The notes below the pieces were generated by a model. It worked only from the letters and a program-made list of their open reading frames with translations. It was not told where the DNA came from and made no database searches. 64,000 nt of DNA from a virus: IMG/VR virus record IMGVR_UViG_3300043570_004127, positions 1 to 64,000 of that record; one strand, 5' to 3'. This document shows positions 14,059 to 31,127 of the stretch, piece after piece. Each line of letters begins with the position of its first letter. Position 1 is the stretch's first letter. The translations under genes were made by a program, and so were the position numbers.

Positions 14059-14088
14059 TCATACACCACCGTCAAACTTTTACAAAGC
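14059..14088 (+). repeat. 30-bp directional repeat, copy 1 (degenerate right arm)
   Basis: TCATACACCACCGTC-AAACTTT-TACAAAGC. Confidence 0.8.
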
Positions 14089-14330
14089 CCAAAATTAGTG
14101 CGTTTGCTTCGCTCTCGTCTTCTCTGACATTTTTGTCGAGCTGTGCTTAGCTTTGTCCCCGGTGCAGATTGGTTCTTCGAGCAGGCGGACATACACAATC
14201 AGCTCGCTGCTGCACACCGGACATATCCAGGTAGACGTCTTAGAACCCATGGCTTTAAATAGTACAACAATCTGTAGCTGCGCGCAGGAATGCCGGCCGC
14301 AAACACGTGAAGTGATTCGTAAACATTTGT

Positions 14331-14663
14331 TTAAATCTCATCAATGCCGCGGTCGAGAAATTTGCGTACGAGCTCTTGAATTTCTTTTTTCTTTTCTTCT
14401 GTTTCGTTGTTGTATATTTCCTGCAGCAAGCCGCGGAATACACGCACGCTCATCTCGAGTAGACCAGAGAGCAGCCCGCCTTCGCGCGCAACGAGCTCTG
14501 AAATCTCTAGAGCATTCGAGCCGGCAATAATCAGTCTGTCTTCATGTGAAAGCTTAGATAGGTCCACACAAGAAACCGAGTCAGTGAGAGGAAAGCCTTT
14601 CTTCTCTACGTCGTCCCATATGAATAAAGATTCTGTTGCATCTGAGAATTCTTGGATACCCAT
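14331..14663 (-). CDS. Hypothetical protein
   Basis: 110-aa ORF in a minus-strand operon. Confidence 0.55.
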   Translation of the reverse strand: MGIQEFSDATESLFIWDDVEKKGFPLTDSVSCVDLSKLSHEDRLIIAGSNALEISELVAREGGLLSGLLEMSVRVFRGLLQEIYNNETEEKKKEIQELVRKFLDRGIDEI

Positions 14664-14912
14664 TTATTTCCATCCTTTTCGTAAACGCTTTTGAGCATAC
14701 ACATCCCAGGTGTATTCAACGTCATCCGCCACCGTCGAACTTTTAGTATGCAATTTTATTTGTTGAAACTTTTTATGGAGCTCTTCGTGTTTTAAAACGT
14801 TGAGCTCAGCTTCGAGCTTGCGCAGCCGCTGCTGAATTCCTTCGAGGCGCCGGCTGAAGAAGATGTGAATTCCAGCGGATAAAGCAATGGCCACAGCAAT
14901 GGATATGTACAT
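14664..14912 (-). CDS. Small TM/coiled-coil protein
   Basis: N-terminal TM; contains repeat copy 2 internally. Confidence 0.55.
   Translation of the reverse strand: MYISIAVAIALSAGIHIFFSRRLEGIQQRLRKLEAELNVLKHEELHKKFQQIKLHTKSSTVADDVEYTWDVYAQKRLRKGWK
14722..14751 (+). repeat. 30-bp directional repeat, copy 2
   Basis: TCATCCGCCACCGTC-GAACTTT-TAGTATGC. Confidence 0.9.
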
Positions 14913-15451
14913 CAGAATGCCGCATCCTGTTTAATTGTCATGTCAACGAGTTTGGCCACTGCCTGGAAGTCTTCGCGCTTGAGGAAGTTGGCTGCAAGGC
15001 CGGCATCGAGAGTGCGTGCTCCTTGAACGTCCCAGTTCATGACGGCTCCATTGTCGTTATACCCGGTGATTGAACGGATGTCTTCGAGGCCCAGCGCGCT
15101 GCCTGGAATCATCTGCGCGACCATCAAGTCGAATTTACAGTTGAGAGTTTTGCGTAGACACATGTACGTGTTCTGGACGATGAGGATATTGATATCTGCA
15201 GCGGCTACGTGCGCGCGCGAATCCATAACCGTGAAATCAACGTCTGGAATCATTTGGTCACTGACTGTGAGTCCGTGCTTAACTTTGTATGGAGACGCTG
15301 AGCCGGGGAAGCCTAAGGCTGCGCAGGATGCATCAGGGTCCTTCGAGACGAGACCAACATAGTGGTCCTTGCTGAGGTCGAGGGCGAGCATCGATGCGAT
15401 AGTCGTGGTGCCCACTCCTCCCTTGGGTGAGTAAACGTTGATAGCAATCAT
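14912..15451 (-). CDS. Short ParA/MinD-family ATPase-like protein
   Basis: SPKGGVGTTT deviant Walker A (catalytic K replaced by T); SD AAAGGA; own promoter. Confidence 0.7.
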   Translation of the reverse strand: MIAINVYSPKGGVGTTTIASMLALDLSKDHYVGLVSKDPDASCAALGFPGSASPYKVKHGLTVSDQMIPDVDFTVMDSRAHVAAADINILIVQNTYMCLRKTLNCKFDLMVAQMIPGSALGLEDIRSITGYNDNGAVMNWDVQGARTLDAGLAANFLKREDFQAVAKLVDMTIKQDAAF

Positions 15452-15487
15452 GATTGCGTATCCTTTCATATGTAGGTATTTGGATAA

Positions 15488-15516
15488 AGGTTACTATTTA
15501 AAAATATTTATGTCAA
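15488..15516 (-). promoter_or_regulatory. sigmaA-type promoter
   Basis: TTGACA-N17-TAACCT followed by an ATACCTAC leader. Confidence 0.7.
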
Positions 15517-15517
15517 G

Positions 15518-15547
15518 TCATCCGCCACCGTCGAATATTTAGTAAGC
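15518..15547 (+). repeat. 30-bp directional repeat, copy 3
   Basis: TCATCCGCCACCGTC-GAATATT-TAGTAAGC. Confidence 0.9.
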
Positions 15548-15581
15548 CAAATATTTGCCGGCGGCAACCGGTCGGCTCCTC

Positions 15582-15779
15582 CTACTCGAAGTAAGCCATC
15601 TCTCCTAGCAATGACATCCAGTCGAACCCTTGGGTGCCAATCTCTTCGAGGTCGACCGCGGCCGCTGCCTGGGTATACGCGTCATCAATCAAATCGTTTT
15701 GGATGCTGCGCAGCCATTCAATCTGACGGCCGAGTGATTGGAACAGTTCATCCTTCACGTCTTCAATTGTGCGGGTCAT
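15582..15779 (-). CDS. Hypothetical protein
   Basis: 65-aa ORF in a coupled operon. Confidence 0.55.
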   Translation of the reverse strand: MTRTIEDVKDELFQSLGRQIEWLRSIQNDLIDDAYTQAAAAVDLEEIGTQGFDWMSLLGEMAYFE

Positions 15780-15924
15780 GAGTGTAACCGCGCTAGCGCT
15801 TCGCGTGCCAGGAACAGTTCGTCCTCAAACTCTTCAGCCTGCTTCTTCCAGTGGTCGCGTTCGAGTGTAACCGCATCAAGTTTTGCACTTAAGCGAATAA
15901 GTTCATCTTGCATCACAGGTCTCC

Positions 15925-16368
15925 TTATGGTTCTGTTGTTGTGGGAAGGAATGGATTAATACTCGAATCTATAGTTACAGAATCTATGGTTGTAGCGTCG
16001 CCAGAAACTTCCCAGAGCGCTATGAAAATCACAGACAGTGGAATAATGAATGCTAAAAGCCCTAGGCCGAGTTCTCGTATCTTTTTAAAAACCAACGCAA
16101 ATACAAGTATTACGTGCCATCCAATTATGATGACCCTGATATAAGTTGGCACGCCTGGACCAACCATCCCCTGTATCAATCCATAGATGATAAATAAACA
16201 GAAAATCCATACTGGATTAAATACCCATATGAGGTATGGGATTGCACCAAATCTTCCAAGGAAAGTTCTCGAGTCGTCATTGGTAACGAAATTGCTCTTG
16301 CCACCAGCCCATAGAACCAGGCACCAAATCGGTAGCAAAAACAAACCAAGATATTCAATACCCATCAC
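15925..16368 (-). CDS. AT-rich multi-pass membrane protein
   Basis: About 4 hydrophobic segments; bracketed by a duplicated initiation region. Confidence 0.6.
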   Translation of the reverse strand: MMGIEYLGLFLLPIWCLVLWAGGKSNFVTNDDSRTFLGRFGAIPYLIWVFNPVWIFCLFIIYGLIQGMVGPGVPTYIRVIIIGWHVILVFALVFKKIRELGLGLLAFIIPLSVIFIALWEVSGDATTIDSVTIDSSINPFLPTTTEP

Positions 16369-16375
16369 AGGCCCC

Positions 16376-29609: not shown

Positions 29610-29690
29610 AGGTACAGGGTACACACCACAACGAGAAAAAGCAAGTCAATTATTTACGGTCAACCGTCACACAAGCAGACCGACGAGCCA

Positions 29691-29720
29691 TCATCCACCA
29701 CCGTCAAACAAATAGTGCTT
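29691..29720 (+). repeat. 30-bp directional repeat, copy 13
   Basis: TCATCCACCACCGTC-AAACAAA-TAGTGCTT. Confidence 0.95.
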
Positions 29721-30020
29721 CGTCTTCTCCCAGAAGCCCCGATAAATAAACGAGAACCCCCTCAGGGACACGTGCCGTCTGAAGAACTCGCAACCTAAAA
29801 AGAATAACTAACAAAGAAAGAAAAACAAAACCCTTTACCCATAAGAAATCACTTCATCTGCGTCGCTCGGCAACTTTATACTGCGTATAAAGTCCGCCTT
29901 CGCTCCGCAGCCCCGTATAGCTTCGACATCAGCTCGAGCTGGCAGCGGCCGCAGCGTCTGGTCGAGCAAACCCACACGAGGGTGCTTGACTTTTGTTCGG
30001 AACTGATTTAAAGTAATGAC

Positions 30021-30188
30021 ATGAAAGTAATTACTAGCAAATACGAGCGAACATGCGTTCGGTGTAAGACAACAACAGACATTGGAGAACGAGTTGAGTT
30101 GATTTCGTTCGGAGTTGCGCACCTTGACAAAGACTGTTTAGACAAACTAAACTCGTCAAAACTTAATCATCCAGCCTTTAAGAACTGA
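30021..30188 (+). CDS. 55-aa zinc-finger protein (absent from the ORF track), leaderless
   Basis: MKVITSKYERTCVRCK...AHLDKDC; promoter TTGACT-N17-TAAAGT at 29986-30014. Confidence 0.6.
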   Translation: MKVITSKYERTCVRCKTTTDIGERVELISFGVAHLDKDCLDKLNSSKLNHPAFKN

Positions 30189-30411
30189 GTTATATGATTT
30201 TTATTATTGTTGTCGGCTGTATCTTAATGTTTTGCGCTACTTTGTGAAAAACGCCACGCATCCATAAATTGGAATTAGTTTAAACATTTACTATGTTGAT
30301 AAACGACTAGTAGGTCATTGCCAACATCAAGGGGAAGTTGATGTGAGCAATTAAAGAGCCCGTCCTCTCATTGGGGGCGGGCTTTTGTTATTTCCGACAG
30401 AACCCATCCTG

Positions 30412-30441
30412 TCATCCACCACCGTCAGATAAATAGTGCTT
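30412..30441 (+). repeat. 30-bp directional repeat, copy 14
   Basis: TCATCCACCACCGTC-AGATAAA-TAGTGCTT. Confidence 0.95.
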
Positions 30442-30734
30442 CTCAACCCCTGAAGCCCCGCTTATTCAGGGGTTGATGTCCCCTTCTTCGGGCGAACTGA
30501 GGCGAACTTCGGCGAACTGCGACGAACGATTTGGTTTCTTTCTTGGGTTGGTGCCTGGCAGAGGTTTCGCGTTTACGCTCAAACGACTGAATTACCATCG
30601 GTAATTCGGGAGTGAGCGGGACTATCAGGTTTGATGTAACGCCGGCACCGCACCGGCAACTCCGTCCGTGCTTGTTCGCCGGCATCCGGTTTCGCTCGTG
30701 CCTGTTCGCCGCTGCCGGGGTGCGTTGATTCGCG

Positions 30735-30789
30735 TGTGGCAAAGTTCACAATAGAATAACTTGACATACCACTTACGCCTCGCTATAGT
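30735..30789 (+). promoter_or_regulatory. CRP-like box plus sigmaA promoter
   Basis: TGTGG-N6-TCACA, 10 bp, then TTGACA-N17-TATAGT. Confidence 0.8.
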
Positions 30790-30810
30790 TATAGGTGAAG
30801 GAGGTAACCA

Positions 30811-30999
30811 ATGACTGAATCACAGCCATCGGTAATCACACTTCAAGAGGTGGCACTCAAAACACATGAGTTCGCTAACTTCTTGGAGGACTTCGGGTTT
30901 CAAAACCCCGAAGCCGTGACTACCGCTATTCGTGAACTTCACGCAAACGCATTTAAGGTTTGGTGGAAACTCATGAATATCCAAACACTGCCCGAGTAA
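30811..30999 (+). CDS. Hypothetical protein
   Basis: SD AAGGAGGT; terminator follows. Confidence 0.7.
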   Translation: MTESQPSVITLQEVALKTHEFANFLEDFGFQNPEAVTTAIRELHANAFKVWWKLMNIQTLPE

Positions 31000-31015
31000 G
31001 CCACCTCGGATAGAT

Positions 31016-31051
31016 AAGAACCCCGCTAGCACCCCCGCTAGCGGGGTTCTT
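31016..31051 (+). terminator. Intrinsic terminator
   Basis: AAGAACCCCGCTAGC...GCTAGCGGGGTTCTT. Confidence 0.8.
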
Positions 31052-31097
31052 TGCTGTATCGGCTCAAATCACGTTCTCCGTTCAGACCACAGCCCGC

Positions 31098-31127
31098 TCA
31101 TCCGCCACCGTCACATAAATAGTGCTT
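31098..31127 (+). repeat. 30-bp directional repeat, copy 15
   Basis: TCATCCGCCACCGTC-ACATAAA-TAGTGCTT. Confidence 0.95.

Follow-up and report, generated by a model that had tools for sequence, protein, structure and literature searches.

Modular exchange is thought to shape phage genomes. To our knowledge, conserved linkers at the joints between modules have rarely been pinned down, and the main case is the promoter-early stem-loop (PeSL) cassettes of T4-type phages, in which mini-circles arise from repeat to repeat during infection. In integrons, promoterless cassettes are read from a common promoter, with an IntI-type tyrosine recombinase and attI adjoining the array. The conserved sequence of PeSLs is a promoter plus a terminator with the units all facing one way, and it has been proposed to act as a linker for homologous exchange that keeps the units transcriptionally isolated (Arbiol et al., 2010, PMC2839356; Comeau et al., 2014, PMC4122927). 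For the stoperators of Cluster A mycobacteriophages, bound by the L5 gp71 or TipsytheTRex repressor, orientation follows transcription and reversal abolishes function (PMC9283540).

We analysed a window of 64,000 nt, the first part of the 169,327-bp record of an uncultured phage of about 166 kb. The locus described here behaves like a PeSL system in that conserved intergenic repeats lie among small, mostly orphan early genes that each carry a strong promoter of sigma-70 type and a terminator, units are inserted, deleted or replaced at the repeats between close relatives, and the small, variable early genes occupy a plastic region. What differs is that the joint element is separate from promoter and terminator and is uncoupled from gene direction. 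It is an invariant 15-bp box without promoter or terminator features and without −35/−10 geometry, 100–350 nt from the promoter; promoters and terminators are other elements of the same gaps. In addition, the box has a single orientation although units point in either direction and are able to flip, and this phage, with an HK97-family capsid protein, is not T4-type.

As with stoperators, short intergenic spaces hold many copies of an asymmetric site of 13–15 bp, and the likely host range is actinobacterial. Stoperators also give a precedent for a single monomer that recognises its site through two DNA-binding domains, and the candidate binder here has two domains. By contrast, box orientation ignores gene direction, with units flipping between clades, and the candidate binder is unrelated in sequence. 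Stoperators are also spread over temperate phage genomes, whereas the boxes lie within 19 kb of a phage without an integrase. Integron attC sites share co-orientation, one site per cassette, gain, loss and reordering, and cargo in either direction. However, no integrase is present (PF00589 is absent from the record), the box itself is no imperfect palindrome, the cassettes carry their own promoters and terminators, and many slots keep the same core genes across deep divergence. T7-type promoters resemble the box as an invariant asymmetric sequence of about 20 nt with an easily melted tract and many intergenic copies, but the searches, in which the control of the polymerase profile also went unmatched, turned up no polymerase gene, and the direction of the copies does not agree with that of the genes after them. 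The proposal of the preliminary description is supported in that this is a conserved cis element fitting none of stoperators, attC sites or tyrosine-recombinase cores.

The box and its copies

A 30-bp bipartite repeat with a 7-nt core had been described in 15 copies, all on the + strand. The left arm TCWTMCRCCACCGTC (15 nt) was found in the window without a mismatch at all 15 starts in that orientation. The claim that the window holds no others stands beyond the array at up to one mismatch but overlooked a degenerate 16th copy at 12553.

12553–12582 (+), degenerate 16th box, one mismatch to the left arm, without right arm; overlaps the start codon of 12080–12556 (−) and the stop codon of 12553–12894 (−)
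14059–14088 (+), box, right arm degenerate, without AGYCCCG; start of a − gene (14039) 20 nt leftward
14722–14751 (+), box, right arm TAGTA-type, without AGYCCCG
15518–15547 (+), box, right arm TAGTA-type; adjoins the −35 element of a sigma-70-like promoter that is directed leftward and spans 15516 to 15488
17236–17265 (+), box at divergent junction; AGYCCCG 17262–17268, inverted partner 17287, gap 18
17990–18019 (+), box, TAGTA-type arm; 2 nt past the stop codon of 17745–17987
21688–21717 (+), box at divergent junction; AGYCCCG 21717–21723, partner 21742, gap 18
22522–22551 (+), full bipartite box; AGYCCCG 22569–22575, then the 3' end of a − operon
24585–24614 (+), full bipartite box at divergent junction; AGYCCCG 24616–24622, partner 24641, gap 18
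25662–25691 (+), box directly 3' of terminator 25620–25649; left end of the cassette missing in relative G002
26364–26393 (+), box directly 3' of terminator 26313–26349; right end of the cassette missing in G002
27245–27274 (+), full bipartite box; AGYCCCG 27286–27292
28106–28135 (+), box directly 3' of terminator 28054–28094; AGYCCCG 28152–28158
29691–29720 (+), box at divergent junction; AGYCCCG 29735–29741
30412–30441 (+), box past terminator 30354–30386; AGYCCCG 30454–30460 lies within the loop of a 12-bp hairpin
31098–31127 (+), last of the boxes, lying some 0.7 kb upstream of the gene for the SNF2 helicase; AGYCCCG 31140–31146

At up to one mismatch, TCWTMCRCCACCGTC had no copy on the − strand and none outside this 16-copy array, both in the window and in the whole record. 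Shuffled sequence gave no match to the full bipartite pattern, and the 15-copy repeat is genuine and far above chance. Its two-part form proved less constant than described. While the left arm is present throughout, the full 30-bp pattern was found within three mismatches in 10 copies only, and right arms are degenerate (TAGTA-type or worse) in the five copies at 14059–17990 and in that at 21688. The constant part is the left arm only; the right arm TAGTGCTT is clade-specific. The core was said always to be 7 nt, but two copies in the closest relative have one of 6 nt, and the spacer is not fixed. As reported earlier, 10 of the 14 intervals measure 0.66–1.1 kb and the enclosed genes face both ways. 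By our gene calls all 15 copies are intergenic, rather than 14; the copy at 14059 is overlapped only by the longest-ORF version of 13518–14198.

The box is asymmetric and not palindromic, and its arms are not inverted repeats. An invariant asymmetric 15-mer is followed by an A-rich, C-poor tract of 15 nt and then by a GC-rich region. The heptamer AGYCCCG forms a third element about 27 nt after the box. It was found in 146 of 243 box-adjacent windows, with a peak 24–32 nt after the box and a background of 0.02 per 60 nt, and its spacing is loose (7–33 nt). Among the 167 heptamer-carrying copies, 28 have AGYCCCG-N16-19-CGGGRCT beside the box, and a subclass, AGYCCCG-N18-CGGGRCT, has a fixed gap.

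Every related phage contig examined carried the box on one strand, in 10–21 copies (10–19 in five relatives), and in one relative with a complete 160-kb genome all 17 copies lay within a 20-kb stretch. The 72 loci with at least three boxes gave 273 distinct copies, none of which was on the minority strand. A spread over both strands genome-wide, which would have pointed to ordinary regulation, was not what the scan returned: there were no inverted copies, and in the record none outside the array. Within the 273 copies, positions 9 and 11–13 are invariant and positions 3, 5 and 7 are two-state. Orthologous junctions keep the box where marker proteins share only 55–70% identity and the flanks carry no information, and related phages with the box reach down to about 55% protein identity. 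The array is one 19-kb block that always adjoins, and is co-oriented with, the SNF2 helicase and replication genes. Because core genes hold identical slots across deep divergence, cassette turnover is slow. The array also holds a ParA-like gene, which is not conserved in other clades.

Transcription units and cassettes between the boxes

Of the 17 boundaries that separate the autonomous early transcription units, 16 carry one box each, in the untranscribed gap. Every unit has its own sigma-70-type promoter, leader and intrinsic terminator, and units occur in either orientation. In + units the promoter (TTGACA-N17-TAnnnT) is 100–350 nt to the right of a box and the terminator just to the left of one; in − units the promoters are 0–50 nt left of a box and directed away from it.

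24740–24768 (+), example of a sigma-70-type unit promoter, 11/12 match to consensus
21872, 25833, 26494, 27601, 29986, 30761 and 31446 (+), starts of further unit promoters, each 100–350 nt right of a box
26313–26349 (+), example of a unit intrinsic terminator, 4–50 nt left of a box
22424–22449, 25620–25649, 28054–28094, 30354–30386 and 31033–31046, further unit terminators, each 4–50 nt left of a box
25889–26290 (+), single-gene cassette, missing in G002; order swapped with cassette 26657–27061 in G003 and L173
22737–24492 (−), four-gene operon containing a Cro/C1-type HTH gene (23682–23894); on the + strand (inverted) between two + boxes in other clades

The array makes up 12% of the genome yet 46% of all intergenic DNA, its genes are mostly orphan, and of the 13 places in the genome that match the strong-promoter pattern it contains 10. 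The box is neither the promoter nor the terminator of the units. It is not their promoter because each unit has a strong sigma-70-type promoter and an intrinsic terminator of its own. The −10 motif TAnnnT in register after the box occurred at most in 8 of 243 copies at any offset, against a background of 2, in any clade. A sigma-70/sigma-A promoter in which an activator takes the place of the −35 would need such a −10 hexamer at a constant spacing from the site.

Gene presence in the array varies among relatives, and cargo beside boxes has inverted at least three times. The boxes flanking the inverted four-gene operon are unchanged between relatives. Comparison of G000 with G002 showed one clean box-to-box cassette indel, and the other indels of this pair were not of that kind (1 of 5 box-to-box). 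Two relatives that are 98% identical differ by three rearrangements, all with one edge exactly at a box end, and to the right of the box at 17990 sequence is replaced between relatives exactly from the box end. Alignments ended at +14 to +16 of the box in 5 of 45 cases compared with 0.9% under the null, and breakpoints were enriched 5- to 12-fold at box edges. The earlier suggestion of cassette-swap sites thus gains support from the indel, the order swap, the inversion and the edges at the box, but about 75% of homology breakpoints between relatives lie away from any box. Polymorphic box positions showed no consistent travel with either flank.

A candidate binding protein and the preferred reading

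One core gene of the array encodes a small protein with a putative DNA-binding domain.

17363–17752 (+), candidate binder of 129 aa; HA domain, flexible linker and sigma-region-4/Mor-like HTH

Two boxes invariably flank this gene, which has the strand of the boxes, and the recognition-helix stretch of the protein (residues 105–117) is invariant down to 52% overall identity. In a structure model a flexible linker connects two domains; superposition of the modelled C-terminal one on sigma-A region 4 gives 1.4 Å across 45–49 residues. This protein is most likely the predicted box binder, chosen by position and co-invariance only. Alternative candidates are a 70-aa Cro-type HTH protein and the HTH modules of the virion polyprotein.

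We favour, with a probability of about 0.5, the reading that this is a predicted protein-binding boundary box that also serves as a cassette-exchange linker. The box would be the site of a conserved sequence-specific protein, the likeliest being the array-encoded protein with an HA domain and a sigma-region-4-like HTH. This protein would attach as a monomer, in the manner of stoperator repressors, and would mark or insulate unit boundaries. Since it is the sole sequence that all boundaries share, and does not vary, the box would also be a linker for cassette recombination, both within one genome and between co-infecting relatives. Such exchange would be driven by homology and need no dedicated enzyme; against this, no phage recombination protein of the kind that would drive exchange over short homology (RecA, RecT, ERF, YqaJ) was detected. 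Exchange via aligned boxes always remakes direct repeats, which would give a single lineage-wide orientation whatever the direction of the cargo. This lock alone may be too weak to account for 0 of 273 inverted copies given at least three cargo inversions, a hint that the box is truly polar in its function. Divergent junctions have no need of a boundary or insulator, yet boxes stand there too.

The element is kept letter for letter at the same joints despite divergence to 55–70% protein identity, and its cargo inverts while the box never does. It is also a testable object, consisting of one 15-mer and one small candidate protein, and yields clear predictions about protein binding, the limits of transcription and the occurrence of circles or nicks. 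Should the box prove to be a boundary or exchange signal, it would help to locate cassettes of early anti-host genes in uncultured phages and would provide a portable slot in which to engineer such cassettes.

Alternative explanations

A related but unlikely possibility is a dedicated cassette system for early phage genes, locked in orientation, in which the sigma-region-4-like protein, bound to the box, would act with AGYCCCG to direct or license exchange, reordering and in-place inversion of promoter-gene-terminator cargo between fixed slots. If true, this would in effect be an integrase-less integron for anti-host genes, and would be a physical embodiment of the linkers invoked by the modular theory of phage evolution.

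Somewhat less probable is that a phage-redirected RNA polymerase uses the box as its promoter, firing rightward at a middle stage. This enzyme would be either the host core carrying the sigma-region-4-like protein in place of sigma region 4 or a phage polymerase that escaped detection. The + cassettes would be re-expressed via long leaders and the − cassettes opposed by antisense RNA, so that one factor would switch genes both on and off. The layout of the box does resemble promoters of single-subunit polymerases, and the right arm and AGYCCCG are well formed mainly before + genes and degenerate before − genes. The array encodes a sigma-region-4/Mor-like protein, a homologue of which is called a Mor family regulator by one source, and the gene for the array's own protein lacks a good sigma-70 promoter and lies only about 100 nt after a box. 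However, no T7-type polymerase, sigma region 2 or DxDGD motif was found in any large protein. The polymerase profile PF00940 had no match in the record, nor did its control in any genome, and large unannotated proteins are present. The absence, in any clade, of a −10-like TAnnnT at a fixed offset past the box also speaks against a promoter, as does the fact that copies all point one way where genes do not and cargo flips where the box does not. In addition, the box stays invariant at junctions followed by − genes alone, with decayed elements on its right, and so has a function of its own.

We consider it improbable, and below the promoter in rank, that a dedicated site-specific enzyme from an unrecognised family, a recombinase or a nickase, acts on the box and AGYCCCG. 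Such an integron-like or HUH-like system would have a binding box followed by the point of nicking or crossover, in some copies inside an inverted repeat rich in GC, and cassettes would be excised and inserted as circles, the single orientation being intrinsic to the chemistry. This would suit 273 strictly direct copies, the cassette-sized spacing, the box-to-box indel and the permuted order, and AGYCCCG-N18-CGGGRCT recalls Rep-box-plus-hairpin origins and the conserved 7-bp inverted core sites that attC has on either side of a variable centre. Homology also repeatedly stops at the last box base, but crossovers anywhere inside a shared box would equally do this. Six-frame searches of the whole record found no tyrosine recombinase (PF00589; control matched in 14 of 14 genomes), and those for serine recombinases and the Y1 HUH family, with matching controls, found none. 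The loose spacing (core 6–7 nt, AGYCCCG 7–33 nt), polymorphic box positions that follow neither flank, the many breakpoints elsewhere, and the slow turnover with the same core genes in the same slots are further difficulties. A tyrosine-recombinase-type core, as first suggested, does not hold up, given arms that are not inverted repeats, a clade-specific right arm, a spacer that is not fixed and no enzyme found.

Least probable are polar signals for a one-way process such as stepwise DNA entry, replication (fork barriers or priming) or Chi-like nuclease control, the link to cassette boundaries being secondary in that a 15-mer can persist only outside genes; the absolute strand bias outlasting inversion of adjacent cargo, the confinement to a 19-kb block co-oriented with the helicase and replication genes, and the cumulative GC-skew minimum at the right end of the array are in its favour, yet such signals need no box at nearly every boundary and none in the other 147 kb. 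The box complement holds a GGTGG run that we take to resemble E. coli Chi. Contig ends are probably arbitrary, since the record has a terminal duplication of 2.8 kb and G001 has its array at another distance from the end; this too counts against such polar signals.

The capsid protein is nearest to those of actinophages and relatives encode WhiB, which makes an actinobacterial host range likely. These large freshwater phages form one lineage, whose hosts are probably Actinomycetota.

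Box copies and layout of the array

All 15 repeat starts in the preliminary description carry the 15-nt left arm, or box (TCWTMCRCCACCGTC), on the + strand with no mismatches, and a degenerate sixteenth copy with one mismatch lies at 12553. The description also held that there are none elsewhere in the window, and this is borne out: at up to one mismatch there are no copies on the – strand and none in other parts of the window, and the remainder of the 169,327-bp record is box-free at the same threshold. The only opposite-strand box-like sequence inside the array (the 12.5–31.8 kb block that holds the boxes) is at 17841–17855 (–), within the coding sequence at 17745–17987. 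It has two mismatches, a stringency at which matches are at chance level. The repeat had been described as a 30-mer with two arms; this applies to the 10 copies that match the full pattern within three mismatches, but the copies from 14059 to 17990 and the copy at 21688 have degenerate right arms. The full pattern had no matches in shuffled sequence. A coding function for the box was rejected, since start and frame are inconsistent among copies.

Deposited public phage records contained no nucleotide matches to this phage, and a literature search with the box sequence returned nothing relevant. We also scanned bacterial genomes for the box together with the heptamer AGYCCCG that lies to its right. 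This gave single scattered matches only, in GC-rich genomes, with no host array or operator.

A codon-usage gene caller, a promoter and terminator scan, and direct reading agreed on the layout of the array, in which 18 short transcription units follow one another in both orientations. Rightward units contain, in order, the box, an A-rich tract with a clade-specific right arm, AGYCCCG, a GC-rich spacer of 100–350 nt that contains short repeats, a motif of the TGTGAC type, a strong promoter (TTGACA-N17-TAnnnT), a leader and ribosome site common to the units, one to four genes, and an intrinsic terminator. The next box follows this terminator at a distance of 4–50 nt, and the terminator stems are alike between units. 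Leftward units have a like promoter, leader, and terminator in reverse, with the promoters located 0–50 nt left of a box and firing away from it. In the whole genome the strong-promoter pattern has 13 matches, of which 10 are inside the array, and the array holds 46% of all intergenic DNA within 12% of the genome. This promoter type suggests that the array is an early region read by the host polymerase.

A box is present at 16 of the 17 unit boundaries, and the boundary that lacks one (12894–13518) holds a box in relatives. Because the units carry their own signals and the box occupies the untranscribed gap that these leave, the box is neither the promoter nor the terminator of the units.

The TGTGAC-type motif occurs 10–20 nt upstream of the –35 of rightward early promoters and could be an operator of a Cro-type protein or of a host factor.

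TGTGAC-type motifs upstream of rightward early promoters
21846–21861, TGTGAC-type motif
24713–24728, TGTGAC-type motif
25807–25820, TGTGAC-type motif
27575–27588, TGTGAC-type motif
30735–30750, TGTGAC-type motif, close to a CRP/FNR-type palindrome

Other features of the array were noted in passing. The spacer after box 30412 contains four tandem-like GCGAAC or GACGAAC short repeats (30491–30534), and GCGAAC runs are found alike in spacers of other units and other clades. A core leftward operon at 18529–21587 codes for three proteins: one of 515 aa that belongs to no family, an AAA_5 ATPase (MoxR/CobS-like) of 266 aa whose gene is better conserved than any other in the array (71–97%), and one of 201 aa with a sub-threshold match to DUF7376 (24 bits, cut-off 27).

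Conservation of the box and its neighboring elements

Related loci were obtained using the protein of the SNF2 helicase gene to the right of the last box, the box itself, and a 129-aa protein of the array. In contigs with at least three boxes, the boxes are always on one strand, which is that of the SNF2 gene (72 loci, 273 distinct copies, none inverted), and one complete relative of 160 kb has its 17 copies inside 20 kb. Across the 273 copies, positions 9 and 11–13 of the box are invariant and positions 3, 5, and 7 are two-state; the sequence flanking the box contains no information. The right arm depends on the clade, being TAGTGCTT in this phage, AGAAGA-type or ACAAGA-type elsewhere, and absent in the most distant relatives. 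The core between the arms is 7 nt except in two copies of the closest relative, where it is 6 nt.

AGYCCCG was present after the box in 146 of 243 windows, for the most part at a distance of 24–32 nt (background, 0.02 per 60 nt). In a subclass, the heptamer is only 7–16 nt from the box and is paired with an inverted partner across a fixed gap of 16–19 nt; in the window this subclass marks the divergent junctions 17236, 21688, and 24585. There are 28 copies of the pair, often followed by TCTGG or TCCA, and every clade has it at orthologous divergent junctions.

AGYCCCG-N18-CGGGRCT pairs, 7-bp inverted repeats beside a box
17262–17293, heptamer pair
21717–21748, heptamer pair
24616–24647, heptamer pair
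25703–25735, heptamer pair

An RNA hairpin after the box was considered and rejected; it occurs in only about one-fifth of copies, with a mean z of –0.7 (+) and –1.0 (–). For the heptamer pair, wobble-versus-mismatch cases favor neither strand and folding energies are unremarkable. Because of this, we take the heptamer as a duplex DNA site rather than an RNA structure. The pair is probably a second protein site. There are no tRNA genes within the array, and a search for known RNA families in Rfam gave nothing except one weak chance match (E = 0.7). The spacer of the 27245 unit contains a box-less right-hand element in the form of another clade (27443–27512), with a AGAAGAAC-type arm, AGTCCCG, and its inverted partner. 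It resembles the remnant of a junction that was either lost or imported.

Many genes of the array belong to the core and occupy the same slots in all clades. At orthologous joints, the box is unchanged while the adjoining non-coding DNA has diverged beyond alignment, and the box is also retained at joints that have only leftward genes after them and decayed elements on the right. That the box is kept in these settings argues for purifying selection on a specific sequence. This points to a function of its own, in which a conserved factor would recognize the box. Identical letters would not be kept across clades if the box served only as homology for recombination.

The box as a proposed joint for cassette exchange

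Three array rearrangements separate two relatives with 98% identity, and in each of them one edge coincides exactly with the final base of a box. The preliminary description asked whether gene gains and losses break at the repeat. This is true of one of the five indels between this phage and its closest relative, which is box-to-box and removes one cassette exactly (25689–26310, with the gene at 25889–26290). Approximately three-quarters of the breakpoints between relatives are elsewhere than at a box. Over 19 regions, in which events in several pairs are partly redundant, 5 of 45 alignment ends are at +14 to +16 of the box (0.9% in the null) and 4 of 42 alignment starts are at –2. At two joints, one following 17990 and the other preceding the SNF2 gene, a single left flank is combined with three or four unrelated right flanks. 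The cassettes at 25889–26290 and 26657–27061 are in swapped order in the related contig G003. Three genomes have a four-gene operon (22737–24492) on the – strand, and at least 12 loci have it on the + strand; it is always between two + boxes, and two further genes are flipped as well. Thus, the box is a preferred joint and not the sole one. The polymorphic box positions show no consistent association with either the left or the right flank.

From these comparisons we favor, with a probability of about 0.5, a protein-bound boundary box that doubles as a linker for cassette exchange. Insertion or replacement through aligned boxes could recreate direct repeats only, which would account for the single box orientation; the whole lineage would remain on one coordinate system, and self-contained cargo could lie in either direction. 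The favored reading accounts only in part for the total lack of inverted boxes, given that adjacent cargo has been inverted repeatedly, and for this reason we kept three other explanations alive.

A promoter for a redirected polymerase is an unlikely one. A sigma-70 promoter on either box strand was rejected, there being no –10 in register in any clade. Sigma region 2 was not found in the whole record, a DxDGD motif was not found in any large protein, and a search of the whole record for a T7-type RNA polymerase gave none, its control giving no match either. It is about as unlikely that the box is served by a dedicated site-specific enzyme. A search for a recombinase had been suggested; tyrosine and serine recombinases were not found in the whole record, nor was a Y1 HUH enzyme. 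Of the proteins that could drive short-homology exchange, RecT, RecA, ERF, and YqaJ were sought in the whole record and not found. Least probable of the three is a truly polar function of the box. A role in partition was considered separately and rejected, as a ParA-like gene (14912–15451) is present only in this phage and G003.

As a comparison for the boundary box and linker that we favor, the cassettes of T4-type phages bounded by promoter-early stem-loops (PeSL) are alike in evolutionary behavior (PMC2839356, PMC4122927). However, the conserved repeat there is by definition a promoter/terminator and the box is neither. Stoperators are alike in site type but follow an orientation rule that the box fails. 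Integron arrays are alike in layout, whereas here no integrase was found and the cassettes have promoters of their own. The box is not palindromic as attC sites are; 28 of the 167 copies that carry the heptamer have the inverted pair beside the box. We assign the box array to the regulatory-cassette and linker systems.

Candidate binder, phage, and host

The gene for the 129-aa protein (17363–17752, +) is always between two boxes and on the box strand. An HA domain makes up the N-terminal part of the protein, and its C-terminal HTH matches the sigma-70 region 4 and Mor families. Residues 105–117, the recognition-helix stretch, do not vary among 22 homologues whose overall identity is as low as 52%, in parallel with the invariance of the box. 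In the predicted model (pLDDT 84), two helical domains are joined by a disordered linker. The C-terminal one can be superposed, at 1.4 Å over 45–49 residues, on sigma-A region 4 in complex with –35 DNA; whole-chain Foldseek E-values are weak. A two-domain monomer is a known way to read an asymmetric 13–14-bp site (PMC9283540). These correlations make the 129-aa protein a candidate box binder. Alternative candidates are a 70-aa protein of the Cro type (23682–23894) encoded by the inverted operon and the HTH modules of a virion polyprotein. The 20 nt ending with the ATG of the 129-aa gene (17346–17365) are conserved in all clades and contain neither a ribosome-binding site nor a good sigma-70 promoter; therefore, expression of this gene may be unusual.

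The record is a virus contig of 169,327 bp, of which the window is the first 64 kb. Because its first 2,826 bases (1–2826) recur at the contig end (genome 166502–169327, 99.96% identical), the unique genome is approximately 166.5 kb. Either the phage has a genuine terminal repeat or the duplication reflects overlapping ends in the assembly of a circular map, and the positions of the contig ends may be arbitrary. A 453-aa ORF at 138–1499 corresponds to the C-terminal portion of a protein of 1,442 aa, for which an Atlas look-up gave no match. The phage encodes an HK97-family capsid protein, portal, prohead protease, SNF2 helicase, primase-helicase, and class II ribonucleotide reductase. Three giant head-module proteins, which are probably packaged and ejected effectors, are encoded between the capsid and portal genes. 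A PDB sequence search and a PHROG scan of the large unannotated proteins gave nothing useful.

tRNA genes and giant head-module proteins
8057–8131 (window), tRNA Arg-TCT
8236–8311 (window), tRNA Asn-GTT
10244–10318 (window), tRNA Thr-TGT
51886–51961 (window), tRNA Met-CAT
61198–64000 (window) on to genome 72252, giant protein of 3,684 residues with Nudix, HTH/sigma-r4-like, DnaJ, and zeta-toxin domains
75077–81403 (genome), giant protein of 2,108 residues
84549–91934 (genome), giant protein of 2,461 residues with RNase T-type exonuclease and lethal-factor-like protease domains

The capsid protein is nearest to those of Gordonia and Brevibacterium phages (47–50%). Just outside the array, relatives have a WhiB-family gene (L195, 4599–4949; L196, 164–514). 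We take WhiB to be a mark of actinobacteria, and the host of the lineage is therefore probably an actinobacterium.
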